Part shown: positions 1,892-35,184 of the stretch, piece by piece
Layout of the letters: the number at the start of each line of letters is the position of its first letter
Numbering within the stretch: the first letter of the stretch is position 1
Assembly (NCBI GenBank): GCA_041751215.1
Contig: JBGSXW010000002.1
Location: 286,591-350,590 of the forward strand
DNA: 64,000 bases
Origin: Candidatus Saccharimonadales bacterium
GTDB taxonomy: Bacteria > Patescibacteriota > Saccharimonadia > Saccharimonadales > JBGSXW01
Direction of reading: 5' to 3'
Position numbers and translations under genes: made by a program
The notes under the pieces: model-generated
The model's database searches: none
The model's input: the letters and a program-made list of their open reading frames with translations, nothing else
Told to the model about the DNA's origin: nothing

Positions 1892-1895
<4 letters not shown>

Positions 1896-3316
1896 CGTTT
1901 AACCTCGATGGTAGCTTTGTCCATCATCTTAGCCTTGCCGGCTGCATAAGTTGCGTCGTCGGTAACTTTGGCTGCTACGCTGTTTGCAATCGACTTCATG
2001 CCCTCGATATCAACAACTGCATTAGGAGGAATGTCGAGTGTGGCATCAAGCATGAGCTGTTGGGCTGTAACAGAGTAGCTCTCGCCTGGAGCCTGCGTAA
2101 ATATTTCGAATAAGTGTTGTCCGAGCTCTAAGTCTTTTCTAACTTCAAGTGCTAACTCCGAGCCAAAGTGAGAAAATTCAGCCGCTCGTTTGTATTCGCT
2201 TAAAGCCCGAATAACACGGTCGCCTAGCAGCTTTTGCCGAGCGCTGTGCCCGCGCCCACCAACACGAGATACCGAAAGCCCAGTGTTAATTGCTGGTCTG
2301 GTGCCGTCCCTAAAAATCTCCATGTCAAGAATTAGCTGCCCATCGGTTATAGACATGATGTTGGTTGGTAGATAAGCTGTTACATCGCCCCCAGGAACCA
2401 ACACAATTGGCAGGGCGGTTAACGATTTGTGACTCGATTTTAGGCGGCCGGCACGCTCAAGCAAAGACGAGTGAGCAAAAAACATGTCGCCCGGATACGA
2501 GTCGCGGCCTGGATTTCCGTTAGCTAGCAGCGATATCTCTCTGTAAACCAAGGCGTGTGAAGTCAGGTCGTCGTAAATAATAATGACGTCTCGACCCTTT
2601 TCTTGCCAAAGATACTCAGCCAGTGAGCAGGCAACGTATGGTGCCAGGTAAGACATCACCAGCGAATCAAACATCGTAGAAACTAGTACGATCGAGTTTT
2701 TAAGCGAATCATGTTCGCCAAGTTTTTTTAGCAAATCATCAACATCAGCTCGTCGTTTAGAAATAAGACAGTAAATTACAATTCGGTCGCTGTTTTTTTG
2801 ATTAAAACCGAGTTGGCTCATTAGGGTGGTTTTGCCAGACTTACTGTCGCCGAGCACGGCGATGCGCTGACCTAGCACGATTGGAAACAAAGCATCAACA
2901 GACGTAATGCCGGTTTCTAGTTGCTGACCTAGCAGCTCGCGCTCCATGATTCCCGGTGCTTTATTAAACACTGGCCAGGTCGCATCGGCTGCAATGGCTC
3001 CTTTGCCGTCGAGCGGCTGTCCGGTCGCAGAGACAACCCGGCCAATGTAGTCCTCACCAACTTTGGCAACTAGCTCGTGGTGCTGAACCACCACGCCCAT
3101 GCCAGTTGTTAGCGGCTTGCTGCCAAGATGCAAGGCCACGGTGTTGTCCTCGTTTACGACATGAACGACTCCTTTGCTACCATCGGCAAACATCAGTAAC
3201 GCCTGAGCAGTAACCGGCTGTAAGCCACGGATAGTAACCAAAAAGCGGTTAATAGACATTACCTCGCCAACCGGCTGACCCTGATCTACTAAGTATTTGA
3301 AGTGCTTGTTAGCCAT
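1892..3316 (-). CDS. atpA: ATP synthase F1 alpha subunit
   Basis: 474 aa with Walker [11 protein letters not shown], an alpha-type core ([17 protein letters not shown]) and the expected operon position. Confidence 0.95.
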
Positions 3317-3825: not shown

Positions 3826-4435
3826 TCTTCACATCCTCGATTATATCTTTCTTGTTGTCTTCAAGGTGTTTGAGGACGTAATCTAGCTGATCGCTCAAAT
3901 CGAGCTCAGATCCGATGGCTTCGATAATGTAGTGATTCAAAATCTCGCCCATGTTTTGCTCAAACTTAGTGATGAGCTGGGTTTTCTCGGCCTCAACTTG
4001 CTGCTTGAGTTGTTGTTCTAGCTGCTCTCTTTGTTGTTCGATTGCGACTTGAGTTCGCTGGATTGACGCCACAGCTTGTTCTTTGGCATCATTGATCGAA
4101 ACTTCGTACTTAGCAAATTCTTGCTGAAGAACTTTAGTGAGCTCCTCTTTCATATACTCGTGCAGCTGGGAGGTTGTTAGCCGCAAGTCTTGCTGTAAAA
4201 AGTCCGCGTTTTCGGAGATGATTTTTTCGAAGTAGAGTCGGCCACGGTTTCGCAGTTCCTCACGAAAATCCTCGTTAAAAATCCGCTCCACATCCTCTTT
4301 GGCGGCATCAACAAGATCATCGCCTGATTTTTTCTTGTGGTGACGTCCGCCGCGAAGTGACATGGCAGCCCAAATAAAGCAAAGTGTGGCAGCTAAGATT
4401 GCAGCTATTAAAATGGCGAATTGATATGTTTCCAT
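3815..4435 (-). CDS. atpF: ATP synthase F0 b subunit
   Basis: A single N-terminal TM helix (FAILIAAILAATLCFIWAAM) followed by a long charged coiled coil, in the expected operon position. Confidence 0.7.
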   Translation of the reverse strand: METYQFAILIAAILAATLCFIWAAMSLRGGRHHKKKSGDDLVDAAKEDVERIFNEDFREELRNRGRLYFEKIISENADFLQQDLRLTTSQLHEYMKEELTKVLQQEFAKYEVSINDAKEQAVASIQRTQVAIEQQREQLEQQLKQQVEAEKTQLITKFEQNMGEILNHYIIEAIGSELDLSDQLDYVLKHLEDNKKDIIEDVKSGA

Positions 4436-4516
4436 CCCACCTCTGTTAGTTTAAGGTTATGGTTATCTGTTAAAGTATAGCAGAATTTAGAGCTTGAAGC
4501 CGTACCTTTTTTGGCG

Positions 4517-4666
4517 CTTTTCACCAGTCAAGCACGCGGAAGACGGGAGCAGCACAGCTAAGTTGTACACCTCGTACTACTTGCGAGTAGCGGTCCGTCT
4601 GACAAAGCGTCCGCAGAGCAAGCTGCTTTGCAGCTTGGCAGGCGGACGCTGATTGGCGGTGAAAAG
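4517..4666. other. GC-rich nested-hairpin element (about 150 nt), unassigned
   Basis: Closing stem CTTTTCACC (4517-4525) / GGTGAAAAG (4658-4666). It encloses stem AGACGG/CCGTCT (4541-4546/4595-4600) and a 17-bp interrupted hairpin AGCGTCCGC-CAAGCTGC-ttt-GCAGCTTG-GCGGACGCT (4606-4650). Confidence 0.35.
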
Positions 4667-4677
4667 AGGCAAAAACA

Positions 4678-4730
4678 AAGAAAAAAGGACCCTGTTGCGC
4701 TTTTGATTGATGTATCAAAAACTAGGGTCC
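4678..4730 (-). terminator. Intrinsic terminator of ORF 4786-5553
   Basis: On the minus strand: GGACCCT, a 30-nt AT-rich loop, AGGGTCC, then TTTTTTCTTTG. It is homologous to the terminator at 25741-25791. Confidence 0.6.
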
Positions 4731-4785
4731 TTGCCGAAGGAGATCATCGTTGTCCCTTCGGGGTCTCATGTGGAGGCGTGGAGGC

Positions 4786-5553
4786 TCAGCCCTCGAACAT
4801 GTGCGGCTTGCCGCGAGGTTCGTCTGGTGTGTCGATTTTTTCGCCGCGGCGAAAACCCCAGGGCCCACCGGCCAGCCAAACCTTTCTCGGCTGGCTCTCC
4901 ACCTCGATTGGCGGGTCCTTGGCGAAGTCGAACTGATCGACCTCGTCGTCGGGGAAGCCCGCAGTATTCCCGCAGCTGGGGCAGGCGTAGCCGGAGCCGG
5001 CCTTGACCATGGGAACGCCGCAGGTCATGCACATCGGTGCCTCCGATGCCAGCGTGGTCGGGTCGTCGTCGACGGCACCGACAGGCGGGTTGGCACCGAT
5101 CGCTTCCGAGAAGTCGTCGAAGACCTTGTCGGGGACGTCGGCGTCCAGAGCCTCGGGGCCACGGAGCATCCGATCGACTTCGGCTTCGGCGCCCTGGAGG
5201 GGCACGACGTCGCGGTCGACATCGGTCTCGGACGTCATCACGGCACGGACGCGGAAGCTGATGTTGCCCGGGATGACCTTGTCACGCAGGCAGTCAGCAA
5301 CCTTGACGAGCAGCGGTGGTCCGATCTTGTTCGCGTCGGCGGGACACGACGCTGTGGGCCAACCGACCACCACGGTGATCTGGCGATCGCCGCTGTCGTA
5401 GGGACCAGCCTCGCTGAACGTTGTGTCGCACACGGATCGATCGAGCTGCTCCATCACGATCTTGGGAAGCTCGTTGGCCAGACGGTCAAGGTCCATGGAG
5501 CTGAGGACCGAACCGCGAAAGTTCGGGTAGTAGTGAACGTGGACCGACAACAT
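4786..5553 (-). CDS. Hypothetical acidic protein with a C-terminal-half zinc ribbon (GC-rich island)
   Basis: 255 aa with RBS AAAGGAG and the ribbon CMTCGVPMVKAGSGYACPSCG. About 63-70% G+C by hand count of two lines. The overlapping long ORFs on both strands are shadows. Confidence 0.7.
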   Translation of the reverse strand: MLSVHVHYYPNFRGSVLSSMDLDRLANELPKIVMEQLDRSVCDTTFSEAGPYDSGDRQITVVVGWPTASCPADANKIGPPLLVKVADCLRDKVIPGNISFRVRAVMTSETDVDRDVVPLQGAEAEVDRMLRGPEALDADVPDKVFDDFSEAIGANPPVGAVDDDPTTLASEAPMCMTCGVPMVKAGSGYACPSCGNTAGFPDDEVDQFDFAKDPPIEVESQPRKVWLAGGPWGFRRGEKIDTPDEPRGKPHMFEG

Positions 5554-5574
5554 GCCGATCTCCTTTCATGAGAG

Positions 5575-5655
5575 GTGCAATTGCACGGATGTGCAATCTG
5601 TTCTTCACACATTGCGAAGTTTTTCGATTATACCACAAGGTTAGTGTAAAATCAA
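5575..5655 (-). promoter_or_regulatory. Promoter plus operator-like palindromes for ORF 4786-5553
   Basis: Minus strand TTGATT (5655-5650), 17 nt, TATAAT (5632-5627). The 5' UTR carries GTGCAATTGCAC-ggat-GTGCAAT (5575-5597). Confidence 0.5.
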
Positions 5656-6824
5656 GATCTCAAACTGGGGTCGGAGAGGGCGTTGGCAATCACTTTAGCG
5701 GCGCTGCTAACATCAGCTTCGCTACTTAGGCGACCAAGCGTAAAGCGCAGTGTTCCACTGGCTTCTTCTCCGTCCAGACCGATCGCAGCCAAAACGTGTG
5801 AAACGTCCTCTTTGTTGGCGCTACAAGCTGCCCCGGTTGCACACTGCACACCCAGTTCATCAAGCAACATGACCGCCCTCTCCCCGTCGATTCCGGGTAA
5901 AGTAACGCTCAAATTGTTTGGCAAATGAGCCTTTTTATGTCCATTCACCTGAATCTCAGGAATGGCTTTGGTTAAGCTTTTTTGAATGCTAACTCGCAAA
6001 GCCCGAACTCGCTTTGATTCGGCACTTCTCATCTGTTGTGAAGCCACCAAAGCCGCTGCAAAACCAACACTCTGGGCAATGTTTTCGGTTCCGCTACGCA
6101 AGCCGTATTCCTGACCTCCGCCTAGAACCAATGGGCTCAGCTTAATTCCTGCTCGCACATACAAGCAGCCTGACTGTTTTGGCCCGTAAATCTTGCCTCC
6201 ATTTAAGGTCATCAGGTCAACGCCGAGGGCATCAACCCGCAAATCTAGGTAATTCGCTGCCTGGCAGGCATCGGTATGAAAATACAGCGGAGTTTTGACG
6301 TCGCGGTCTTGGCGATCCGCTCGCACAGCTTTTATAGCTTCGGAAATCTCTTTAAGCGGTTGAATGGTGCCAATTTCATTATTGGCATACATCACGCTAA
6401 CTAAAGCCACGTCATCTGTTATGGCTTTGGTTAGGGCGACGAGATCAACTACTCCGACGTTGTCTACCTTCACGATTTTTGCATCCACACTTTTTGCTGG
6501 TTGCAAGACCGAATCGTGCTCGATAGCCGAAACTACAGCCTTGCTGCCGCTATTCGCATCGATAACTCCGCGAATTGCTAGATTATTAGCCTCGGTACCG
6601 CCAGCTGTAAAGATAATTTCACCAGGCTTGGCGCCTAACACGCCAGCTACTTGCTTCCGCGCCGCTTCGTAAGCTAGGCGAACATCTCTGGCCGCGATAT
6701 AAACCGCCGAGGGGTTGTAAAACTGATCCGCAGAATATGGCTCCATGGCTTTTTTAACTGCTGAGTCAATCGGTGTCGCCGCTGCGTGATCGAGATAAAT
6801 TGCATTCTTCATACTAGTTGACAT
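5652..6824 (-). CDS. Cysteine desulfurase (class V aminotransferase, NifS/IscS-like)
   Basis: 390 aa with HTDACQA, the PLP-lysine context LNGGKIYGPKQSG, and the C-terminal active-site loop CATGAACSA. Confidence 0.9.
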   Translation of the reverse strand: MSTSMKNAIYLDHAAATPIDSAVKKAMEPYSADQFYNPSAVYIAARDVRLAYEAARKQVAGVLGAKPGEIIFTAGGTEANNLAIRGVIDANSGSKAVVSAIEHDSVLQPAKSVDAKIVKVDNVGVVDLVALTKAITDDVALVSVMYANNEIGTIQPLKEISEAIKAVRADRQDRDVKTPLYFHTDACQAANYLDLRVDALGVDLMTLNGGKIYGPKQSGCLYVRAGIKLSPLVLGGGQEYGLRSGTENIAQSVGFAAALVASQQMRSAESKRVRALRVSIQKSLTKAIPEIQVNGHKKAHLPNNLSVTLPGIDGERAVMLLDELGVQCATGAACSANKEDVSHVLAAIGLDGEEASGTLRFTLGRLSSEADVSSAAKVIANALSDPSLRS

Positions 6825-6886
6825 CGTATCTAGTATATCGTATTTGGTATACCGCGAGATACGAGATACTTATTGCTAGATACTAA

Positions 6887-7252
6887 TTAGATAGCAGGCT
6901 GTCGGTGATAGACTTCTTCGGTCACGCGCTGATAATAAACTCGGGCTGCTTGGAGCAAGTTTTGTAGCTCTTGGCCACGCACGTAGTGATACTGTTGGCC
7001 GTCTTGGACTTTTACTACTCCGGTTGGGCGAATTTCGTATCTGGTAGTTACCGACTGCTCTTGTCCGTTGGCATCGGTCCAACCCTCGTACCAAACCCAA
7101 GTTTTTGAGTCCAGGCAAAAGAAGTCACGTCGATGTCCTTTTGGCACATGTCCAAACAGCTGGCCACCGATCTTTGCTTCTTGCTTAATAAGGCTGCGAA
7201 CAACGTTTTTGGCCTTTGGTGGTGTAAAAAACTGTGTAAGTTGAGTAAACAT
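6887..7252 (-). CDS. Hypothetical protein
   Basis: 121-aa ORF with backbone composition in a co-directional gene block. No motif recognised. Confidence 0.55.
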   Translation of the reverse strand: MFTQLTQFFTPPKAKNVVRSLIKQEAKIGGQLFGHVPKGHRRDFFCLDSKTWVWYEGWTDANGQEQSVTTRYEIRPTGVVKVQDGQQYHYVRGQELQNLLQAARVYYQRVTEEVYHRQPAI

Positions 7253-7261
7253 AGCTTCTCC

Positions 7262-7540
7262 TTACGCCGCCAGTTGGCGGGGCTCCTCGGCTGCTGCCGT
7301 TAGTTCGCGCTGGGAAATAACTAGGTCGCTGATGTAGCCAAGCTGGGTGGCAATGTAGGCTTCTTGTTCCGGTGTTAGCGGTGCTTGTTCTGCGGTAGCT
7401 ACTGGTGTGGTTTCTTGGCCTGGAACCAATGACACAACTGATTGGGGCGGATTTGTGATAACTGGAGCAACATCAAATCTTGGCACCTCATAAGTGCCGT
7501 CTTGAAGCTGTTCCGGTGATACAAACTGTCCGTCTGCCAT
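7262..7540 (-). CDS. Hypothetical protein
   Basis: 92-aa ORF tightly packed between neighbouring genes. No motif recognised. Confidence 0.45.
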   Translation of the reverse strand: MADGQFVSPEQLQDGTYEVPRFDVAPVITNPPQSVVSLVPGQETTPVATAEQAPLTPEQEAYIATQLGYISDLVISQRELTAAAEEPRQLAA

Positions 7541-7552
7541 GTTGTCTCCTTG

Positions 7553-8341
7553 TTACAGGTTAAAAAGTCTAGTGGCGTTTGCTGAGGTGGTATCGGTTAG
7601 CGTACTAATCGACTCCCCTCTTAGCTTGGCCAAGAACTCCGCCGTCAACACTAAGTGTTTAGGCTGGTTTATTGTACCACGTTTTGGGCTTGGGGTCAAG
7701 AATGGTGCATCCGTTTCTAGTAGCAGCCTCTCTTGTGGCACGGATTTGGCCGCCTCCAACTGACGTTCATCGCCCGTAAACGTCATGATCCCATTTAGCC
7801 CCACGTATAAGCCACGTGATATTACACCTGTTAACTCTGGTTGTCCAGCGGAAAAACTATGAACAACGCCGCGGATTTGCTTACCCTTAGCGTCATACTC
7901 ATCCAAAATTCTGAAAAAGTCAGTAAAAGCATCGCCCGGGTTGGACTTGCTGCCTCGGACATGAAAGATAAGCGGCAGGTCACTCTCTAGTGCTAGGTCT
8001 ATTTGCCACTTAAACAAAGTTTCCTGAATCTGTCTGGGCGAATGCTCATACCAGTAGTCAATACCGGTCTCGCCGACCGCTACAACTTTAGGGTCTAGTG
8101 CAAGTTCGGGCAAGCGACTGGTTTTAACATCGAAATGTTTGGCCTCATGCGGATGAATTCCAACAGTCGCCCAGCAATTTTTGCGGTTAGCTGCAAACTC
8201 GATGGCTAAGGCAGTGTCGCTCTCATCTGTTCCGACGCAGATAATTTTACCCACTCCAGCATCGAACGCGGCTTTAAAAACCTCGTTTGAGTCTAACTGA
8301 TAGTCTTCTGAATGAATGTGACAATGGGTATCAATTAGCAT
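7553..8341 (-). CDS. tatD: TatD-family metal-dependent hydrolase/DNase
   Basis: Starts MLIDTHCHIH and contains GETGIDY, VHSFSAG and LLLETDAPFL. Confidence 0.9.
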   Translation of the reverse strand: MLIDTHCHIHSEDYQLDSNEVFKAAFDAGVGKIICVGTDESDTALAIEFAANRKNCWATVGIHPHEAKHFDVKTSRLPELALDPKVVAVGETGIDYWYEHSPRQIQETLFKWQIDLALESDLPLIFHVRGSKSNPGDAFTDFFRILDEYDAKGKQIRGVVHSFSAGQPELTGVISRGLYVGLNGIMTFTGDERQLEAAKSVPQERLLLETDAPFLTPSPKRGTINQPKHLVLTAEFLAKLRGESISTLTDTTSANATRLFNL

Positions 8342-8374
8342 GTTTGAATTCTACCATGCCACCGCGAGCATTAA

Positions 8375-8403
8375 TTGTAAAGTTTATGCTTTTGTGTTAT
8401 AAT
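8375..8403 (+). promoter_or_regulatory. Sigma70-like promoter of the mini-membrane-protein pair
   Basis: TTGTAA (8375-8380), 17 nt, TATAAT (8398-8403). Confidence 0.55.
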
Positions 8404-8460
8404 CACCACGTTTCAGGGAGATTCTCTGGAAGTACTCTACCAAGAAGGGAGCTGTGGCTT

Positions 8461-8667
8461 ATGCTGCTCTACCAGGGCATGCTCGCGTTTGGAGTTGTCG
8501 GACTGATCCTCGGCATCGGAATGTTCGCAAGAGAAGCGATCAGAAACATTCGCCAAACAGGATCAAGTCTTGTCCCGGCGCTAGCTGGGTGCGCAATGGC
8601 TGTGGCGTCTGGCCTGGTCATCCCCTTCAGCTGGGGGGAAATCGTCCGGATCCAGGGGGTCTCATGA
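8461..8667 (+). CDS. Small two-TM membrane protein (GC-rich island)
   Basis: 68 aa: MLLYQGMLAFGVVGLILGIGMF...CAMAVASGLVIPF. RBS AAGGGAG lies 8 nt upstream. The start was re-picked inside track ORF 8287-8667. Confidence 0.55.
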   Translation: MLLYQGMLAFGVVGLILGIGMFAREAIRNIRQTGSSLVPALAGCAMAVASGLVIPFSWGEIVRIQGVS

Positions 8668-8873
8668 GCGCAAATGCAGTCGGAGTCATATTCCTGATCC
8701 TGGCCTTGCCGGCCGGAATCACCCACCACGCGTGGGAGGCGGCGAAGAATCGCAAGATCGTCGCCCCTGGCGAAGAACTCGGGCCGACCATGCTCAAGCT
8801 CTACGACGGTGCCGTCGTGCTCGCGTTCCTTCTCATATCAGTCGGGTTCTTCCGCCAGGGAGGGCTCATCTAG
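8664..8873 (+). CDS. Small two-TM membrane protein, translationally coupled (GC-rich island)
   Basis: 69 aa: MSANAVGVIFLILALPAGI...GAVVLAFLLISVGFF. ATGA overlap with the preceding ORF. The start was re-picked inside track ORF 8454-8873. Confidence 0.55.
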   Translation: MSANAVGVIFLILALPAGITHHAWEAAKNRKIVAPGEELGPTMLKLYDGAVVLAFLLISVGFFRQGGLI

Positions 8874-9209
8874 TAAGGTTGGGGCACCTTGACCACTTTT
8901 CTCTCCGAGAAAATGTCTAAACGCCCCACAACCAGAGTGCTTAATTATCGATTGAGCCCTGCGGTTGGAGGAATGACGGAATAAGATGTAAAAAGACGCA
9001 ATCATTTCGCCCGCATCGACTAAAACCTCTGAACTTGTAAGGACAGAACATGGCGTGACGAGGACTGTTCATACGTACTCCGCAGTAACCCAAGTTCTGT
9101 GCGAAACAAGTTCATGAGTGTTTTAGTAGCAGCGGGGTAGTTTTGAGCCACTTTATGAAAAGTGGCAATACCCCCGTCGCGGGAGCGACAAGGCAAATCT
9201 GAAAATGCC

Positions 9210-22691: not shown

Positions 22692-23342
22692 ATGAAGTAC
22701 CAATCTTTGACTCTCTACCGATTCATCCAGTTCATCAGCCGGTGTTACTGCTACCTGACTTACGAATGCCACCTGATCGGCTCGGCGAATCTGCCCTCAG
22801 ACAGGCCCTTCGTGCTGGCGTCGAACCACCGCGACAACCGTGACACCTGGGTGCTCGGAGCTCTGCCGCTGCGACCGATGTGGTATCTCGCAAAGCACCA
22901 GCTCTGGACCAAGGAGTTTCTGTGGGCCGGCTACTGGTTCTTCAACTTCATGGGGACGCTGCGTGTCGAACGTGGCAATGTCACCCAAGAGCTGTACGAC
23001 CAGTGCAAGACCATCCTGCAGTGGCAGCGACAGCCGGTGGCGCTTTACCCAGAGGGTCGTCGCCGCACAGGGCAAATGATCGAAAGCATCAAGCCTGGCG
23101 CAGTCCGCATCGCGCTCGATAGCAACGTGCCACTGATCCCGATGGCTATCCACGGCACCGAAAAGGTCTTGCGCTCCAAAAAGTTCAGGACTCCGCTCGT
23201 CGTCGTGATTGGCCGTCCAGTCAAGCTAGACGAAGATGCGACCGAAGAAGAAAACGTCGAGAGGCTGCGCCTAGCCATGCAGGAGGTGTTAGACCAAGCA
23301 ATCGATGCGTCACAGGCGGTCAAGCTCGCTCGCAGCCACTAG
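22692..23342 (+). CDS. plsC: 1-acyl-sn-glycerol-3-phosphate acyltransferase-like (PlsC family), GC-rich island
   Basis: HX4D motif NHRDNRD and YPEGRR. The start is moved to ATG 22692, with AGGTG upstream. The segment is GC-rich. Confidence 0.8.
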   Translation: MKYQSLTLYRFIQFISRCYCYLTYECHLIGSANLPSDRPFVLASNHRDNRDTWVLGALPLRPMWYLAKHQLWTKEFLWAGYWFFNFMGTLRVERGNVTQELYDQCKTILQWQRQPVALYPEGRRRTGQMIESIKPGAVRIALDSNVPLIPMAIHGTEKVLRSKKFRTPLVVVIGRPVKLDEDATEEENVERLRLAMQEVLDQAIDASQAVKLARSH

Positions 23343-23594: not shown

Positions 23595-24059
23595 TCAGGG
23601 CGTCAAGGCCTCGATCATCTCGCATTCACGAGCGTCTTGCAAAGCATCACGCTCGGCATCGATGGTCTTGAGCTCCGGAACCCGCGTGAACATGATGTTC
23701 GTGATCTGGCAGGCTAGGAAATAGCCGAGGAACTCCCTCCACGTGTCGTCGCCGTCGAGCTGTTCGATGACGTCCAAGCCTTTGAACTCCATCGGCCCGT
23801 CGGTGGTGCAGACGACGTAGAAGAGGAGCTGGACGAGCTCCGGATCGTTGAAGCGCTCCTTCATGACGTGATTGACCATGCGAACTGCACCGTAGCTGAA
23901 AACCATGTGCGTGCACACGTCCCAGTCCCCAGGTCCGACCTTGCCGGTGCCGTGGCAGAGGAAGCAGTTATCCTGCTCCATTTTTCCGCTGGCTCGGTAC
24001 ATCGCTGCCATCTCCCAGATGAACCGATCGAATGTGCTAGCCGAAATCTCCGTGGTCAT
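23595..24059 (-). CDS. Hypothetical protein (GC-rich island)
   Basis: 154 aa with strong RBS AAGGGAGG and a single CxxCxGxG-like motif CFLCHGTG. The opposite-strand ORFs are shadows. Confidence 0.65.
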   Translation of the reverse strand: MTTEISASTFDRFIWEMAAMYRASGKMEQDNCFLCHGTGKVGPGDWDVCTHMVFSYGAVRMVNHVMKERFNDPELVQLLFYVVCTTDGPMEFKGLDVIEQLDGDDTWREFLGYFLACQITNIMFTRVPELKTIDAERDALQDARECEMIEALTP

Positions 24060-24184: not shown

Positions 24185-24259
24185 GGCCCCTTCGTCTAAT
24201 GGTTAGGACACCAGGTTTTCATCCTGGCAATAGGAGTTCGATTCTCCTAGGGGTCACCA
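24185..24259 (+). tRNA. tRNA-Glu (anticodon TTC), CCA encoded
   Basis: Cloverleaf read by eye: acceptor GGCCCCT/AGGGGTC, anticodon loop TTTTCAT, T-arm GGAG-TTCGATT-CTCC. Confidence 0.9.
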
Positions 24260-25234: not shown

Positions 25235-25672
25235 ATGCCTAAGGTCTTCCTCCAAGGGGACGCCATCTGGGCCGTGCCGCCGTCGCGCGACATACTCACC
25301 GACCAACAGCAATTCACCTACGAGCTGGCCCAAGAGCTCCAGAGCATCTGCGCCTCGGCCATGACGAGATCGGGCTTCGATACCCGAGGGAACCAGGTCG
25401 TCGTGCGCTGCCTGGCACCTCTGCCGCTCGTGATCAACGGGGACAACCTCGAGATCACGTTCGCACCGAACTTCACGCCCGAGCGGCAGGCTCAGGAAGA
25501 AGCGATCCGGGATCACCTGATCGATCTGGTTACGGAGTTCACGGGGGACTGGGTCATTTCCACACTCGGTGAGGCTGGCACGTGGCCGACCATCGCGTAC
25601 GACATCGACTTCACCATGGGCATCGGTGGTCTCACGAACACGGATGGCCTCCTCAAGTCCACCTGGCCCTGA
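25235..25672 (+). CDS. Hypothetical protein (GC-rich island)
   Basis: 145 aa starting MPKVFLQG, with RBS GAAGGGA. The antisense ORF 25082-25516 is a shadow. Confidence 0.65.
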   Translation: MPKVFLQGDAIWAVPPSRDILTDQQQFTYELAQELQSICASAMTRSGFDTRGNQVVVRCLAPLPLVINGDNLEITFAPNFTPERQAQEEAIRDHLIDLVTEFTGDWVISTLGEAGTWPTIAYDIDFTMGIGGLTNTDGLLKSTWP

Positions 25673-25740: not shown

Positions 25741-25791
25741 GGACCCCCAATTTTATGCAATGCATCAAATCTCGGGGTCCTTTTTTCTTTG
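25741..25791 (+). terminator. Intrinsic terminator of ORF 25235-25672
   Basis: GGACCCC, a 26-nt AT-rich loop, GGGGTCC, then TTTTTTCTTTG. The last 16 nt are identical to the terminator tail at 4676-4691 (minus strand). Confidence 0.65.
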
Positions 25792-25798
25792 GCAAATT

Positions 25799-27262
25799 TT
25801 ACGCAGCTCTCACTCTCGGTATCTGATACCAATCTGTTACATAGGCTGGAGACTGATGATCGCGGTGAGAATGCCAGGTTCGACGATCTCCAGCATCCTC
25901 TCTGGCATGATGAACCGCCGCCGGACCGTAGCGCTTGTTGATAGCATCGACCGTTTGCATTAACAGATCTTGGCGTTTTAAATACGGCTCCGTCGCTGGC
26001 TCTAAAACAGACAATTGTTTAGCACTCTCTGGCACCAAGTGGCTTAAAATAACTCCGGCTTTCTTATAGCTAAAGTCAGGGTCATAGACTTGCTGCATGG
26101 CCGCCAAGGCTGCCTTAATAATTTCGCCCGTATCAGAGGTGGGAATCGGCAGTTTGACCTTATGATAAATATAACTATGTCCACTGGGAATATTGCGTTT
26201 TAAATAAACGCTGACTTCCCAGGTTAGTTCGTGGTTGCGCCGTAATTTAGCGGCCGTTCGGGTTGCAAAATTAGCAATTGCGGCCTCGATCTCGTTTAGA
26301 GCCCTGAGGCTGCTGCCAAACATCCGAGTGGCCGAAATGCTTTGTTGCGGATCATCTGTTTGATCTAAGGGAATACAACTCTCCCCCCTTAGCTCTTTGA
26401 TGGTTTTAAGACCCCTGATGGTTAAGTTCTTAAGGATCCAGCCATCTGGCATCTGAATCAGGTCATAAGCGGTCTTTATGCCCATCCCCTGTAGGCGCGG
26501 CGCTGTGCGCCAGCCTATTCCCCATACATCTTCAACTGGTGTTTGCCGCAGACTATCCTCTGTTAGCTTGGGTTTGTTAACCAAGCTTAGTCCGGCCCCA
26601 AGACTTTGATCTTTTTTGCTTCGAGCAACTGCTAACTTAGCTAGCGTTTTAGTTGGAGCCACCCCTACAGATACCGATATTCCGGTGTGTTTTTCTACCG
26701 TGGCCGCCACCTCTAGTGCCCATCTTTTATAGTCCTCTATGGGTAGCGTGCTGACCTCTAGAAAGGACTCGTCGACCGAATAAACCTCAATGTCGGGTGA
26801 AAACTGTTTGAGAATGGTTGTGATTCGCTGAGACATGTTGCCGTACAGTGCGAAGTTAGCCGAGAAAATCTGAGCTTGATGGGCTTTTAATAGTTCCTTG
26901 TGCTTAAAGTATGGAGCGGCCATAGGAATGCCCAAAGCCTTAATCTCGTTCGACCTAGCGATGATGCAGCCGTCGTTATTGGACAAGACGGCCACTGGCT
27001 TGTCTTTGAGATCGGGCCTAAAGACCCGCTCACAAGAGGCAAAGAAATTATTACAGTCAATCAGAGCGAACAAGGGCATCGTTTTGCCCGGCTTACTGGC
27101 AGAGCCAGCAACTCTGGCAAAACTTGGAGCGCTGAGCTTTGTTCCAGCCTCCGCTACTCCTCTACCGTACTCTGCGTACGCCTTCGTCTGTTGCTCGGCT
27201 GCGCCTCGCTCAGCATCTCCATGCCCGTGCTCGCTAGGGATAGAACCCGGTGGTTGCTTCAT
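25799..27262 (-). CDS. umuC: Y-family translesion DNA polymerase (UmuC-like)
   Basis: ALIDCNNFFASCE, SVDESF and the C-terminus SPAYVTDWYQIPRVRA. ATGA overlap with the upstream umuD-like gene. The 61-aa N-terminal extension may not be translated; the alternative start is ATG 27079. Confidence 0.9.
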   Translation of the reverse strand: MKQPPGSIPSEHGHGDAERGAAEQQTKAYAEYGRGVAEAGTKLSAPSFARVAGSASKPGKTMPLFALIDCNNFFASCERVFRPDLKDKPVAVLSNNDGCIIARSNEIKALGIPMAAPYFKHKELLKAHQAQIFSANFALYGNMSQRITTILKQFSPDIEVYSVDESFLEVSTLPIEDYKRWALEVAATVEKHTGISVSVGVAPTKTLAKLAVARSKKDQSLGAGLSLVNKPKLTEDSLRQTPVEDVWGIGWRTAPRLQGMGIKTAYDLIQMPDGWILKNLTIRGLKTIKELRGESCIPLDQTDDPQQSISATRMFGSSLRALNEIEAAIANFATRTAAKLRRNHELTWEVSVYLKRNIPSGHSYIYHKVKLPIPTSDTGEIIKAALAAMQQVYDPDFSYKKAGVILSHLVPESAKQLSVLEPATEPYLKRQDLLMQTVDAINKRYGPAAVHHAREDAGDRRTWHSHRDHQSPAYVTDWYQIPRVRAA

Positions 27263-27648
27263 CTGTGCGAACCCTTATGGGAGTGTAGATTATAGGTGAT
27301 TACACCCCATATCTGGAGGTCTTGACCGCTAATGGTATCGGCTAGGACCTCCCCCTGTGAGCTCAGCAGAGCCCGCACAGAGCCCTTTACTCCCACCTGC
27401 CCTATCTTGAACTCTCCGTTGTGCCAAGCAACTACTAGGTCTCCTGGTTGCGGATCCAGTGATTTATCGATAATTAACAGATCATTTTTAAAAATGCCCC
27501 AGATCTGAATCTGCCCACTAACTCTCATGAAGAAGGTGCTAGCAGGACGCTTAATTACTAGGTCATGAAGGCTTAGACCAGCTAAATTAGCCTCTTCTGC
27601 AGGATTTGGGAAGCCGGCTTTTACAGGAGTCTGCTTCACGGCATCCAT
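27259..27648 (-). CDS. umuD: UmuD/LexA-C-terminal-like (S24 fold) protein, apparently lacking the Ser/Lys dyad
   Basis: 129 aa that aligns by eye with E. coli UmuD from VQCGFPSPA onward (here VKAGFPNPA). GDSM is replaced by GQIQ, and FTVKKL by FKIGQV. RBS AAGAGGAGG. Confidence 0.75.
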   Translation of the reverse strand: MDAVKQTPVKAGFPNPAEEANLAGLSLHDLVIKRPASTFFMRVSGQIQIWGIFKNDLLIIDKSLDPQPGDLVVAWHNGEFKIGQVGVKGSVRALLSSQGEVLADTISGQDLQIWGVITYNLHSHKGSHR

Positions 27649-29185: not shown

Positions 29186-29821
29186 AAATTCTAGTGTTTA
29201 ATGTGGCGCTGGCCATCTATAAACATTGTATAATCATGGTGCTAAAGCTATTGACATAAACATTATAAAGTGGTAGTATTCATAAGTCATCGTTTTGCGG
29301 CATGTGAGGTGGAGAGCTCGGAGACGAGCAACCTACACGCCCTGGCGGTTGGGCACATCAACATTTGTATATCTGTCCCTATCTCAAATCGAGCAATCGA
29401 TAGGAGTAGGGATTTTTATATGCAAACGGTGTGCTAGCCATTTTGGGCGGCCTTCTATGAGGCCGGAAACCTATCTAAACAGGTGGGCCAAAGCGATTGG
29501 GTACGTTAACAGTTAAGTCAAATCATTAGTCTATATAAATCTTCAGAGTCTGAGGGCAGGCTGGTGCGTATGCAGACCATATATGCCGCAATCTTATGGT
29601 TCGCGTACACACCACTCTGCTCTCAGGTGTTCGTCAGTTGGCGAACGCATTCTGAAGCAGTAAATGACTACTATACACTCAACGCAAAGGCAGTTTTGCA
29701 GCTCGGCTTCAGAAGCAGCACTTTGGTTACTAGTTTAATTATTAGTCGCTAAAGTGCTGTTTCTGGACAAAGCATGCAAAGCAATTCCCATCCCGTCCGC
29801 TCGAGACCCTAAGGAGGTCCC

Positions 29822-30889
29822 ATGAGCAAGCCAAAGACAAGCAAGTGGAAGCGAGGTGTTTACTCCAGCCTGGCAATCATTGTCCTCGGCAGCCTCCTTT
29901 CGGTGGCTGTGCTCTCCCATTCGGGAGACGGCAATGCACAGGCAGAAGAGGAGGCACCGGCAACTGCAGCACCGCCGACCACGGAGGCGCCGACCAGTGC
30001 CACCACCGAGGAACCTGTTCCGGAGTGCACCACGTGGACGATCGAGGAGATCGACGACGAGGACACCCACCAGGTCATCCCCGGGGGTCTCGAGGCCATT
30101 CGCGCCGCCGAGACCGAGGAGGAGGCACGCGAGGCCATCGACGTGTACATGCGAGAGATTCGGAGAGATCCGGATGTCTTCGTGGGCAACATGGCGTACT
30201 TCTTCGAGCCCGAGCAGATCATCGCTGTCAGCGAGGTCTTCGACGAGCACGGGTGCGCCACGCCAGCCGCGGACAACATGTACGTGCAGGTGTCCGTCAA
30301 GCTCGGTTTGAGCTGGATGGCTCCCGATGAGGCCCCAGAAGTAGGGACCAATTCGGGTGTGAACGACGACGGCGACGTCGTGGTGGCTGAGCAGCCCGGG
30401 ATCACCGGTGACCGTGCGGCCATCAAGATCGTTCTGCCTGATGGCACGGAGCTGTGGATCATGGCCCGTTGCGGCAACATCGTGTCGGAGAATCCTCCGC
30501 CACTCCCCCCAGGGGAAACAGATGAGCCGCCGACAGGTGGTCCGCCGTCACCTCCGCCGCCTCCGCCGCCGCCACCTCCGCCGCCACCTCCGGGTGACGA
30601 GCCGAAGTGCTTCGACGAGAACGGCAACCCCGTGTACGACGCGGCCTTCTGTGGCACTCCCGAAGGCGGACCCGAATACATCCCGCCCACAGAGGATCTG
30701 CCACCCGTCAACACCGGCCCCACACCAGGTGCCCCTGAGACGCCTCCACCGGTATCCGTACCGGAAGAGACGACCCCAGAGGAAGACGACGCGGTCGCCA
30801 ACCCCGAGACTCCCCCGGAGATCGAGGACGACCCCCCCGCGCCGCCGCCCCCACCTGGTGAGGATCCGCCTCCGCCGCCGCCCCCCTGA
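29822..30889 (+). CDS. Secreted/anchored proline-rich acidic protein (GC-rich island)
   Basis: 355 aa with RBS AAGGAGG, an N-terminal signal-anchor, poly-Pro runs (PPSPPPPPPPPPPPPPPGDEP) and a C-terminal PPPPPPP. The opposite-strand Gly-rich ORF is a shadow. Confidence 0.7.
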   Translation: MSKPKTSKWKRGVYSSLAIIVLGSLLSVAVLSHSGDGNAQAEEEAPATAAPPTTEAPTSATTEEPVPECTTWTIEEIDDEDTHQVIPGGLEAIRAAETEEEAREAIDVYMREIRRDPDVFVGNMAYFFEPEQIIAVSEVFDEHGCATPAADNMYVQVSVKLGLSWMAPDEAPEVGTNSGVNDDGDVVVAEQPGITGDRAAIKIVLPDGTELWIMARCGNIVSENPPPLPPGETDEPPTGGPPSPPPPPPPPPPPPPPGDEPKCFDENGNPVYDAAFCGTPEGGPEYIPPTEDLPPVNTGPTPGAPETPPPVSVPEETTPEEDDAVANPETPPEIEDDPPAPPPPPGEDPPPPPPP

Positions 30890-31177
30890 AGTACCTACTT
30901 CTTCGCATCCGCGGAGAAGCTGTCAGCGTTGGGTTGAGAGTACGCCTCGGCGTATGAGTAGTCCCCTGGAGGTGTGTGTTGTGTTTCGCCAATGGCGAAT
31001 GTCTTTAATGACAAACATAACACCACCTCCAGTTCTCACCCCTTTTAATAATTTTGTATCTACTAATGATTTGACTTGACTGAGCCCGTTAGCGCACATT
31101 AACAATCCGGTACCGTAAAGTGAAAATTTAAGTTAGTGTGTGCTATTTATTAAGTACGTTTTAAAGAAGGAGGAGAT

Positions 31178-32847: not shown

Positions 32848-35184
32848 CTACCAGTTGTCGCGGTCTCCGCACGTCATAGCCGATATTTCTTGTAGCGGTC
32901 TCGCTTCCGAGAACACGCTCCAAGACACGTCGCCTGTGCCGTACCACTCACCTTGCATGACATACCAACGGTTGTTTCGATGCTCTACGGAGTAGAACTC
33001 ATCACGTCCGTCGGCATTCGCGTCACACTCAACCGCGAACAGTGGTGGAGCAATACCATTCCAGATATCCCAGGTGGTTCCGTTTACTGCGTTGATGCGA
33101 CGAATCGAGCCGCCTCCGTCAAGGTGAACCTTAACTTCATCAACGCCGTTGCCGTCCCGGTCTCCGCACGTCATAGCAGTTATGCCCCGCCCATCAAAGT
33201 CAGCAGAAAATTGCCTCCACTGTCCATTCTGAGCGTTGGGCCGCTTGCCCTGCATGACGTACCATCGGTTGTTGCGAAACTCCGCCGAGTAGATCTCGTC
33301 TTGGTTGTCGCCGTTTACATCACACTCCACAAGGAAGTGTGACTTGGCGAGTCCCGAAAACATAACCCACGTCTGTCCGGTCTGAGAATTGATTCGGCGA
33401 ATTGATCCTCCGGTTAGGTGGACCTTCACTTCATCGTTTCCGTTACCGTCACGGTCGCCACAACTGATGGCATTGATAGTGTTTCCATCGAAGTCGGCTG
33501 AAAAAACACTCCAACCGCGCTCCGACCCTGATTTGCCCCACGTGCCTTGCATGACGTACCAACGATTGTTGCGAAACTCCGCCGAATAAAGCTCGGTTTC
33601 GCCGTCACCGTCAGTGTCACACTCAACACGACCCTGGCCCGCCATGATGCCCTCCCACATTTCCCACGTCTGACCCGTTGCTGGGTTGATTCGGTATGTC
33701 GATCCATTGCGGTGGATCTTAACCTCCTCGTGACGATACGGATTTGGAGTGGAACTCTGACCGCAATTACCGCTCACCAGCGGGTGAGTTGTAAAACGAT
33801 CACCACTTGGCTTCACCGGCCCCCAGTTCAGGGAACCGCCAGTCAGAACCAAAGGCTTCATGACGCCGCCAACTAGCTGCTCGTAGTGCAGGTGAGGCCC
33901 GGTTGTAAAGCCGGTCTCGCCAACACGACCGATGATCTCACCCTGCCGAACATGCCGGTTCGATGAAAGCAGCCCTGCAGCTTGAAGGTGAGCCATTCGG
34001 TGCATGCGGCCAGTTGCGTCGATTACCTCAACGTAGTGACCGTAGCCGTTTGGATCCCACTTAACCACTGCGTGCCCCGTTGCCGGAGCTGCCACCAACG
34101 TGCCCTTGTCTACAGGCAAGTCAATGGCATTGCTGTGGTCGTAGGATCCACCCCCAGGCAGCCCGATTGAGCCGTAGGTCGAAGCATACGGCGAGACCTC
34201 CCCACAACTCAGCGGGAGATTGCTGTAAACATTCGGCCCCGACGGAACCCCGATGGCCGGTAGCGGGTCCGAAAACCCGCCGCCAATGCCAAAGCTATTC
34301 CGGCGCTGGAAGAGCCGAAGCGCGATGGCCTGATGGCCACGCGCATTGGGATGCCACCATTGATCGGTGTCTCCGGTTGGAAAACCATTGGCAAAGCCTG
34401 TTGGATTGATCCAGTCGTCAAGCGGTCCGCAAACCTCGTGATTGGCGAATAGATCCATGACCCCAACGTAGGACAGTCTGTAGGCATTCGACAGATTCAA
34501 CTCCGCCACTAGGCCTGCCTGCATGTCACTCGCAGACTCACTCAACGCTCTGATGCGCGCACCCGACGGATAATTCCCGTCTTCGAGCGTGTAAATTGGA
34601 TTCCCGTGGCAGTTATCCAGCAGGTATGGATATCCAACCAACACGATTTGAGCATTCGGGAACTCATTCAGGATGCGCACCAGCTGATCGCGCGTCCGAC
34701 TGCGGATTGTGCCGATCAGAGCCTCTGCCTGATTAAGTCGAGCGTCACACACCGACCGTATATTGAAAATCAGGCAATAAGTCACGATCTCCTTGAAGCC
34801 CGCATCGTTGCCTCCAACCGTCAACAACACAATGTCGGCAGCACTGCGCGTAGATGAGTTGAATAGCGAGATCTGCTGGGGGATGTTCGACGTGGTTGCT
34901 CCACTACAGGCTGTAACGCCAACAGTGGTTGACCACCCTGCTGTACGCAGTAGGTCGCTGAACTCATACGCATAGCTGGCATGTGACTCATAGCAGCCGG
35001 GCACGTTTGGGTCATAGCTCCCAGCACCATTCCCGGCCGTAAACGAATCACCGAGCGCAACGATGTCAACGTGCTCCTTCGCTGCTTCAGCATCGCTGGC
35101 TGACCCAGCGAGACTCAACAACGAGCACATCACACTCACGACCACAAAGGTCGCGATTTGCCGGAAATTCCGGTGCTTTTTCAT
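32848..35184 (-). CDS. Secreted multidomain protein: SGNH/GDSL hydrolase + M23 peptidase + three 99-aa Ca-binding-type (FG-GAP/VCBS-like) repeats (GC-rich island)
   Basis: 778 aa with a signal peptide, the GDS block VALGDSFTAGNG, the M23 motif HYVEV...GETGFTTGPHLHYEQ, and repeats CD.DGDG..E.YSAEFRNNRWYVMQG / CGDRDGNG.DEVKVH. One sampled line is 35/60 G+C. Confidence 0.85.
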   Translation of the reverse strand: MKKHRNFRQIATFVVVSVMCSLLSLAGSASDAEAAKEHVDIVALGDSFTAGNGAGSYDPNVPGCYESHASYAYEFSDLLRTAGWSTTVGVTACSGATTSNIPQQISLFNSSTRSAADIVLLTVGGNDAGFKEIVTYCLIFNIRSVCDARLNQAEALIGTIRSRTRDQLVRILNEFPNAQIVLVGYPYLLDNCHGNPIYTLEDGNYPSGARIRALSESASDMQAGLVAELNLSNAYRLSYVGVMDLFANHEVCGPLDDWINPTGFANGFPTGDTDQWWHPNARGHQAIALRLFQRRNSFGIGGGFSDPLPAIGVPSGPNVYSNLPLSCGEVSPYASTYGSIGLPGGGSYDHSNAIDLPVDKGTLVAAPATGHAVVKWDPNGYGHYVEVIDATGRMHRMAHLQAAGLLSSNRHVRQGEIIGRVGETGFTTGPHLHYEQLVGGVMKPLVLTGGSLNWGPVKPSGDRFTTHPLVSGNCGQSSTPNPYRHEEVKIHRNGSTYRINPATGQTWEMWEGIMAGQGRVECDTDGDGETELYSAEFRNNRWYVMQGTWGKSGSERGWSVFSADFDGNTINAISCGDRDGNGNDEVKVHLTGGSIRRINSQTGQTWVMFSGLAKSHFLVECDVNGDNQDEIYSAEFRNNRWYVMQGKRPNAQNGQWRQFSADFDGRGITAMTCGDRDGNGVDEVKVHLDGGGSIRRINAVNGTTWDIWNGIAPPLFAVECDANADGRDEFYSVEHRNNRWYVMQGEWYGTGDVSWSVFSEARPLQEISAMTCGDRDNW

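Follow-up and report, generated by a model that had tools for sequence, protein, structure and literature searches.

A GC-rich orphan-gene islet, probably acquired horizontally, upstream of the ATPase genes in a Saccharimonadales genome

What stands in front of atpF when the genes expected there are missing? The question is raised by a 64,000-nt stretch of the genome of a Candidatus Saccharimonadales bacterium (assembly GCA_041751215.1, contig JBGSXW010000002.1, positions 286,591 to 350,590), hereafter the window. Here the ATPase gene cluster begins with atpF, and a GC-rich segment with one open reading frame (ORF) of 255 codons, ORF255, separates it from csd, a cysteine desulfurase gene. An earlier reading of the DNA letters, the sequence-only reading, took this segment for an insertion in the place of atpB and atpE. 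On the basis of its composition, its expression signals and the same site in related genomes, we propose that the segment is probably a horizontally acquired, separately transcribed orphan-gene islet from an unsampled high-GC donor. The earlier interpretation is partly supported: there is a foreign insertion, and its site does lack a gene linked to the ATPase, yet the absent gene is not atpB or atpE.

Composition, reading frame and assembly of the segment

The GC content of ORF255 is 64.3%, against a window mean of 48.7% (z = +4.0 among equal-length windows), and only 0.9% of the equal-length windows along the 64 kb match it. The genome as a whole has 48.8% GC. The GC-rich part extends over about 4508–5553 with a sharp GC step; both flanks are AT-rich, with 42% GC at 5554–5651 and values down to 34–44% beside atpF in 80-nt windows. 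The relative synonymous codon usage of ORF255 correlates with that of four other, longer GC-rich islet genes in the window (r given as 0.57–0.87 or 0.68–0.87), and with that of the backbone genes only at about 0.2–0.25. The sequence-only reading had described a compositional shift between atpF and the desulfurase. Its four counts of G+C in 60-nt lines (42/60, 38/60, 22/60 and 33/60) are exact, and the shift is borne out by the GC content, by a third-position GC of 0.80 and by the codon usage, whose comparison with the backbone it had suggested as a check and which sets ORF255 apart. The segment is compositionally foreign, and the codon-position GC of ORF255 is what a gene of a genome with about 65% GC normally shows.

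Read on the minus strand, ORF255 has GC contents of 0.66, 0.46 and 0.80 at the three codon positions. A plus-strand ORF at 4750–5571 shows the mirror of this pattern (0.79, 0.47 and 0.66), which argues that ORF255 is the real frame and the plus-strand ORF its shadow. We give hardly any credence to the idea that the plus-strand ORF is the gene, or that the segment is non-coding. The plus-strand ORF is the longer one (273 aa), but it starts with TTG, and a promoter scan shows no promoter-like site 5' of this start. Moreover, promoter, Shine-Dalgarno (SD) sequence and terminator are all oriented for the minus strand, and a zinc ribbon with database matches reads in the minus frame. The minus-strand ORF at 4786–5553 with the ribosome-binding site AAAGGAG, as first described, is confirmed; the site lies 6 nt 5' of the ATG.

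The same ORF255 protein occurs in the independent Logan assembly of run SRR28170463. One Logan contig (L001) equals window positions 4636–9048 and another (L070) begins at window position 4558 and extends across the atp genes; each is 100% identical to the window. The two overlap by 79 nt and end inside a 168-nt imperfect palindrome, a plausible cause of the contig break. Their identity and overlap mean that both junctions of the GC-rich segment are reproduced, and the assembly is correct across it. A chimeric assembly, or a high-GC contaminant fused to the contig, might account for the sharp GC step, for the break of both Logan contigs in the palindrome and for an ORF255 protein from one sample only. 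We regard it as very improbable, given these two contigs. Furthermore, an AT-rich promoter, an SD sequence and a terminator frame ORF255 in the same style as in other islets, and about seven islets of the same design are spread over the 64 kb.

The site upstream of atpF in related genomes

As relatives we used 68 loci from species-representative genomes, retrieved with the alpha subunit of the window. They are nearly all named Saccharimonadales or Saccharibacteria, with alpha subunits 33–67% identical (mostly 50–62%) to the query. The order tatD-o121-csd-(gap)-atpF-atpH-atpA-atpG is kept in 38 of the 68. The gap between csd and atpF holds a single ORF of 231–313 aa, mostly about 280 aa and of backbone GC, in 34 of these 38 loci; we refer to it as gapX. 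The gap is empty in the other four (L004, L013, L018 and L052), where the spacer measures 84–162 nt. Among the 59 informative loci, whose contigs reach far enough beyond the operon, a gene found with the gapX profile adjoins the operon in 54, including distant loci with another upstream neighbour. Neither gapX nor a remnant of it was found in the window by tblastn and profile search.

A tblastn search with ORF255 gave no match in the 68 loci. An ORF255-like gene at the same place in relatives would have spoken against an insertion, and none is there. The comparison of synteny proposed in the sequence-only reading therefore turned out in two ways: the absence of ORF255 from all 38 syntenic loci agrees with an insertion, and the presence of gapX or nothing at the site in relatives disagrees with a former place of atpB and atpE.

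In the window, the gene order is b-delta-alpha-gamma-beta-epsilon, with mnmA and alaS past atpC. The alpha, gamma, beta and epsilon subunits are clear in Pfam and NCBIfam, and b and delta, with weak matches, are assigned by position and architecture. The alpha subunit (1892–3316, 474 aa) falls below the curated NCBIfam atpA cut-offs (393 vs 554 bits; 385 vs 484); it is divergent, yet resembles genuine atpA more than it resembles the mycoplasma F1-like families.

We searched for the a subunit (PF00119 type, with the conserved Arg of R-x-x-x-N) among six-frame ORFs of the window and the 68 loci using phmmer with E. coli AtpB and a motif scan, and for the c subunit (a two-TM hairpin with an ion-binding Asp/Glu) with a hidden Markov model (HMM) built from six sequences. 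Nothing better than E 1.6 was found for an a-subunit gene in the window or within ±10 kb in the 68 loci, and the c-subunit HMM had no match over the same range. The original observation that the cluster starts at atpF, with no a- or c-subunit ORF upstream, stands and extends to the whole window. The segment is not, however, a place where atpB and atpE are to be expected, because none of the 59 informative loci has either gene before atpF. As a rule, neither is linked to atpF in these bacteria, throughout the 68 loci and over ±10 kb, a situation that the sequence-only reading itself had named as contrary to its claim. The canonical atpI-B-E-F-H-A-G-D-C operon has the same order from b to epsilon as the window, but the window has no a, c or I gene at either end, and relatives place gapX at the atpE slot. 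The cultured saccharibacterium Southlakia epibionticum has atpI-atpB-atpE-atpF-atpH (PMC10633639 supplement). Given this order and a c-like hairpin in gapX, the earlier expectation at this site was reasonable.

A TATACT element or a near-variant (ATACTA, TATAGT) follows the csd stop codon within a few nt in all 12 relatives inspected. In the empty-spacer relatives, this type of element lies 45–60 nt 5' of atpF. In the window, TGCTATACT runs from 4482 to 4474 and is followed by the conserved GGTGGG ribosome-binding site of atpF. As this conserved −10 element still stands next to atpF, it belongs to the backbone and not to the islet. Judging from these elements, the window resembles an empty-spacer genome that has gained about 1.1 kb past the end of csd and ahead of the operon promoter. 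The separate atp promoter, together with the terminator of ORF255, indicates that ORF255 is not a member of the operon.

In a neighbor-joining tree of four concatenated proteins, the window forms its own deep branch, and the empty-spacer loci fall at two separate places, one with L004, L013 and L018 and the other with L052. Together with the window, these positions imply that gapX was lost at least three times, twice without an insertion. Since relatives lost gapX without any insertion, the insertion in the window need not have displaced anything.

The gapX gene encodes a hypothetical membrane protein of about 280 aa (for example L002:8045-8884, L010:7832-8677, L020:7875-8714, L046:8093-8905 and L067:7929-8681). 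The family counts 1,023 or more clusters at 90% identity, and its named members are all hypothetical or evidently misnamed, none with a Pfam domain. Among the best 120 of the 1,023 matches, none has a longest contig of 419,022 nt, the length of the contig that contains the window. The protein has a signal peptide and two C-terminal transmembrane (TM) helices. An AlphaFold model from a 38-sequence alignment (pLDDT 82.7) predicts a signal/anchor helix, a beta-rich outer domain and a C-terminal two-helix hairpin. By Foldseek, the modeled outer domain is similar to decoration proteins of phage capsids (TMt 0.40–0.54 at a probability of about 1). The hairpin superposes on the ATP-synthase c subunits 9itt_H/I (TMt 0.83–0.85, root-mean-square deviation (rmsd) 1.6–1.7 Å, 21% identity). 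The invariant GRNPL loop aligns with the RQP loop of c subunits (hhalign E 1.4e-3, probability 18%), and the carboxylate position is hydrophobic (I/M/L). The modeled hairpin is suggestive of homology to the c subunit. We rejected gapX as a bona fide c subunit by Pfam and PDB standards: it has no Pfam match, a PDB profile search returned no c subunit, and hhalign against E. coli AtpE alone gave a probability of 0.1%.

The c-like hairpin of gapX and the lack of an a subunit nearby recall the F1-like X0 clusters of mycoplasmas, Types 2 and 3 (Beven et al., 2012; PMC3369863). Both kinds of cluster combine F1-type genes and lineage-specific membrane proteins with no recognisable Fo. In contrast to the mycoplasma clusters, that of Saccharimonadia keeps b- and delta-like genes, and its alpha subunit is nearer to genuine atpA than to the mycoplasma families. 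By analogy, the gapX-bearing cluster may be an 'F1-X0'-type ATPase without an a subunit. In the library searched, we found no paper that links F1-X0-type ATPases to Patescibacteria.

ORF255, its zinc ribbon and its expression signals

ORF255 has a grand average of hydropathy of −0.31, and neither a hydrophobic segment nor a signal peptide is evident in its sequence. Its one recognizable part is a zinc ribbon with the cysteines C175, C178, C191 and C194. The sequence-only reading had noticed this ribbon and given its spacing as N13; the ribbon is there, and the spacing is CxxC-N12-CxxC. Residues 168–199 correspond to positions 927–958 of the 960 in NCBIfam NF005122, the vitamin-B12-dependent ribonucleotide reductase (RNR), with E 1e-6, and Pfam gives a weak Zn_ribbon_TiaS match. 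Neither Pfam nor NCBIfam detects a catalytic domain in ORF255, and there is no fusion to RNR or TiaS.

That the protein is otherwise unrecognizable, as first noted, is confirmed by protein searches, which match through the ribbon only. Among 5.8 billion protein clusters, a word-indexed search returned ORF255 itself as the sole match. A HMMER scan of 1.84 billion representatives returned 33 further proteins. With the exception of P0002, they match via residues ~160–200 and are mostly short C-terminal fragments of class II RNR (NrdJ), the best of which are 59–68% identical to ORF255 over about 31–37 residues. P0002, a repetitive protein of 864 aa, covers residues 96–131 and appears spurious. Searches of PHROGs, PADLOC and PDB sequences found no match, nor did those of phage and plasmid records and of viral and metagenome contigs. 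With a structure model of ORF255, Foldseek recognized the ribbon alone (the Csl4 ribbon superposes with an rmsd of 0.5 Å over 25 columns) and returned no match outside it at E < 0.08. The model suggests a beta-alpha-beta-alpha-beta-beta N-terminal region and a disordered, acidic and proline-rich C-terminal tail of 55 residues.

Three candidate identities were rejected. A 103-residue BLAST alignment to P0005 suggested homology to NrdJ past the ribbon and vanishes when the ribbon is left out (E > 0.1). A tautomerase-like beta-alpha-beta unit in the N-terminal region is unsupported by Foldseek. An origin as a phage, plasmid or defence gene was dismissed after the PHROG, PADLOC, phage and plasmid searches.

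The reductase tail, or CRD, mediates oligomerisation and electron delivery (PMC5704485). In its NrdJ form, C920, C923, C936 and C939 bind zinc and C933 and C945 form the terminal redox pair, an assignment made by homology modeling and partly backed by mutants (Loderer et al., 2017; PMC5704485). Compared with this known ribbon (Pfam PF23783), that of ORF255 has the same CxxC-N12-CxxC spacing and the same four predicted zinc ligands, C175, C178, C191 and C194 corresponding to C920, C923, C936 and C939 of the S. nassauensis enzyme. It differs from the CRD in being internal, with the 55-residue tail after it, and in lacking a reductase domain. In addition, the positions of the redox cysteines C933 and C945 are taken by G188 and F200. 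As the zinc ligands are kept and the redox cysteines are lost, the ribbon would be structural and incapable of redox relay. We tentatively suggest that it is a binding module, on a novel scaffold, for nucleic acid or a partner protein, and not a redox shuttle. One might also imagine ORF255 as a decoy of the tail of a host-type class II RNR: a captured copy with its zinc site, joined to a novel domain and the disordered tail, that would serve as a dominant-negative effector directed against the host supply of deoxyribonucleotides. The support for this lies in the resemblance of the ribbon and in the two missing redox cysteines and goes no further, and we consider it very unlikely.

The promoter of ORF255 runs from 5655 to 5627, with its −35 hexamer overlapping the csd stop codon. 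A TTGATT-17-TATAAT promoter overlapping the desulfurase stop had been proposed before; it is there and is additionally TG-extended. On the mRNA, the GTGCAAT repeat forms an 8-bp hairpin in the 5' untranslated region (UTR). The array GTGCAATTGCAC-ggat-GTGCAAT at 5575–5597, read earlier as operator-like, is present as described, and its reading as an operator does not rise above chance. The window contains 16 perfect 12-nt palindromes, where a chance calculation gives 64000/4^6 ≈ 16, and GTGCAATTGCAC with up to two mismatches is not enriched in the window. We therefore rejected GTGCAATTGCAC as an operator.

The 168-nt palindrome lies between the terminator of ORF255 and the atp promoter. Its closing stem is 18 bp long (4508–4525 with 4658–4675) and encloses an inner hairpin (4606–4650); of the two strands, the plus strand gives the more stable fold (−79 kcal/mol, z −5.25). 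Rfam gives no match over 4508–4675 even at E ≤ 10, and its matches in 4300–5800 lie outside the palindrome and are at chance level. No further copies of the palindrome were found, and exact-match scans of viral and metagenome contigs with its core were also empty. The coordinates of these features are collected in Table 1.

Table 1. Features of the islet upstream of atpF, its neighbours and the other GC-rich islets of the window
Feature	Position	Strand	Remarks
atpF-like b subunit, 206 aa	3815..4435	-	N-terminal TM helix and coiled coil; first gene of atpF-H-A-G-D-C
TGCTATACT, −10 element of the atp operon	4474..4482	-	conserved in the lineage; directly upstream of atpF
Imperfect palindrome, 168 nt	4508..4675	.	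between ORF255 terminator and atp promoter
3' UTR of ORF255	4672..4761	-	fold −35.1 kcal/mol, z −3.1
Terminator U-tract U6CUUUGUUUU	4672-4684	-	directly after terminator stem
Intrinsic terminator	4685-4732	-	9-bp GGACCCUAG/ACAGGGUCC outer stem and inner hairpin
First 3' UTR hairpin	4734-4761	-	
ORF255 (islet A), orphan protein, 255 aa	4786..5553	-	27.6 kDa, isoelectric point 4.4, soluble
Zinc ribbon CMTC-N12-CPSC	4954..5052	-	residues 168-200; class II RNR C-terminal (CRD)/TiaS type
Predicted 5' UTR, ~66 nt	5554..5620	-	42% GC; fold −25.7 kcal/mol, z −2.5; predicted transcription start
SD sequence AAAGGAG of ORF255	5560-5566	-	6 nt 5' of the ATG
Leader hairpins	5603-5619 and 5579-5598	-	second from GTGCAAT repeats
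ORF255 promoter	5627..5655	-	−35 TTGATT, 17-nt spacer, TG-extended −10 TATAAT; 10/12 matches, TG present
csd, class V aminotransferase/cysteine desulfurase	5652..6824	-	conserved upstream neighbour
GC-rich islet, two small membrane ORFs	8461-8873		
GC-rich islet, acyltransferase	22692-23342		best identity to known proteins 31%
GC-rich islet, orphan ORF	23595-24059		
GC-rich islet C, orphan ORF	25235-25672		
GC-rich islet D, orphan ORF	29822-30889		proline-rich
GC-rich islet	32848-35184		islet is part of this range

Other islets and the origin of the ORF255 islet

The six further islets have a third-position GC of 0.61–0.82 and contain mostly orphan ORFs. Several are of a common design, with a TG-extended near-consensus −10 element, a strong SD sequence and a hairpin terminator, and no paralogy was found among the islet proteins. 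At the same threshold, we counted one GC-rich islet in 1.12 Mb of related loci and two in the 64-kb window. The 17-mer GGGTCCTTTTTTCTTTG occurs exactly in the terminators of ORF255 (4676–4692) and of islet C (25775–25791), which also have AGGACCC and ATCAAA blocks in common; none of 100 shuffles gave two matches. This similarity may reflect a 3' module shared by the two islets or a single source of their 3' ends.

Around the other islets we made several side observations. Inverted repeats of 21 nt (95% match; 29510–29530 and 31062–31082) flank a 1.57-kb segment with islet D and resemble the ends of a small transposable cassette. Upstream of islet D, a 636-nt stretch without ORFs (29186–29821) carries a near-consensus promoter, TTGACA-17-TAGTAT, and several hairpins, and has no Rfam match. 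A tRNA-Glu gene (24185–24259) adjoins the convergent islets B1 and B2. Between islets C and D lies a pair of umuD-like (Peptidase_S24) and umuC-like (IMS family) genes (25799–27648).

We propose the following course of events for the ORF255 islet. The ancestral csd-atpF spacer would have held gapX, and the window would represent one of its independent losses. An islet of about 1.05–1.17 kb would stand inserted between the csd stop codon and the conserved TATACT promoter, as a self-contained unit of extended −10 promoter, hairpin leader of about 66 nt, SD sequence, ORF255 and intrinsic terminator. Its product would begin with an orphan alpha/beta region, continue with the structural zinc ribbon and end in the disordered acidic, proline-rich tail. 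The donor may be a high-GC organism or mobile element unrepresented in public data. As the islet bears no mobility signature, its likely route of entry is natural transformation with subsequent illegitimate recombination. Saccharibacteria are naturally competent, and the cultivated ones grow as epibionts on Actinobacteria (PMC10633639). Their ATP synthase is dispensable in co-culture. Competence and a dispensable ATP synthase make both DNA uptake and the loss of operon accessories plausible.

Did the insertion displace or replace something? The idea that it displaced atpB and atpE from a former place upstream of atpF can appeal to the canonical order in Southlakia and to a cluster that does begin with atpF. 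We judge it to be very unlikely: the informative relatives have gapX or nothing at the site, no a or c gene lies nearby, and the empty-spacer relatives show that the site can be vacated without an insertion. Hardly more probable is a non-orthologous replacement, by which ORF255 would be a functional ATPase partner that took the gapX slot and some of its role. ORF255 does stand in this slot, on the same strand and directly upstream of atpF, and the atp genes of the window are intact despite the absence of gapX. Yet the two proteins are unlike, gapX having a signal peptide and two TM helices and ORF255 being soluble and acidic; a strong intrinsic terminator and the own promoter of the atp genes separate ORF255 from atpF; and four relatives do with neither gene.

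Unlikely too, although deserving more weight, is a decayed mobile element (a phage, an integrative element, an integron cassette or an element like a miniature inverted-repeat transposable element, MITE) as the source of the islet in place of transformation. On this view, the palindrome and the terminator module common to islets A and C would be leftovers of the vehicle. Such an origin would give a place to the otherwise unexplained palindrome, to the exact 17-nt match with its flanking similarity between the 3' ends of islets A and C, to the inverted repeats around islet D and to the tRNA-Glu gene beside B1 and B2. Like the ORF255 islet, integron and MITE-like cassettes consist of a single ORF followed by a long imperfect palindrome, but ORF255 has its own promoter, with no attC site, terminal inverted repeats or target duplication. 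There is no integrase or transposase among the neighbouring ORFs tested, no attC core site (RYYYAAC / GTTRRRY) in 4436–4800, and no inverted or direct repeat, target-site duplication or flanking tRNA at the islet. A target-site duplication or duplicated promoter at the islet borders was considered and rejected, since the best border alignment, of 10 nt, is equalled in 180 of 500 shuffles. The database searches for phage, plasmid, defence and viral sequences, empty as they were, also argue against such a remnant.

Horizontal acquisition of an orphan-gene islet is the reading that we prefer, and several points weigh against it. As neither donor nor homologue was found outside the 33-residue ribbon, the case for horizontal transfer is drawn wholly from composition and synteny. 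ORF255 is known from a single sequence in one sample, its single-sequence AlphaFold model is poor (pLDDT 50), and its function is a guess. The promoter and leader, which are AT-rich, may belong to the native spacer and not have come in with the gene. The acyltransferase, the sole other islet gene searched and the one with a recognizable family, is at most 31% identical to any known protein. With no integrase, repeats, duplication or tRNA at the islet, the mechanism of entry is a matter of inference. Finally, the window has no close relative, the closest being about 58% identical over the four concatenated proteins, so that gapX loss and insertion may have been sequential or a single swap.

The ORF255 islet is a further case of a known kind, the horizontally acquired ORFan islet. 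With known single-gene islets of this kind it has in common the sharp shift in GC and codon usage, the absence from relatives, the intergenic site and expression signals of its own. It differs in having no donor, homologues, mobility genes or repeats, and in its recipient, a reduced genome of the candidate phyla radiation (CPR), in which high-GC islets are rare. Taken alone, its importance is modest, that of one more horizontally acquired orphan gene. Its setting is a reduced, naturally competent CPR genome with an unusual load of high-GC single-gene islets, which have full expression signals and no donor among about 15 billion public proteins. The islet also points to a slot that Saccharimonadia have emptied repeatedly, at the start of their ATPase operon. 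If the picture of gapX and a missing a subunit holds true genome-wide, the 'F-type ATPase' of Saccharimonadia, which is routinely scored as nearly complete, may not be a proton-coupled ATP synthase.

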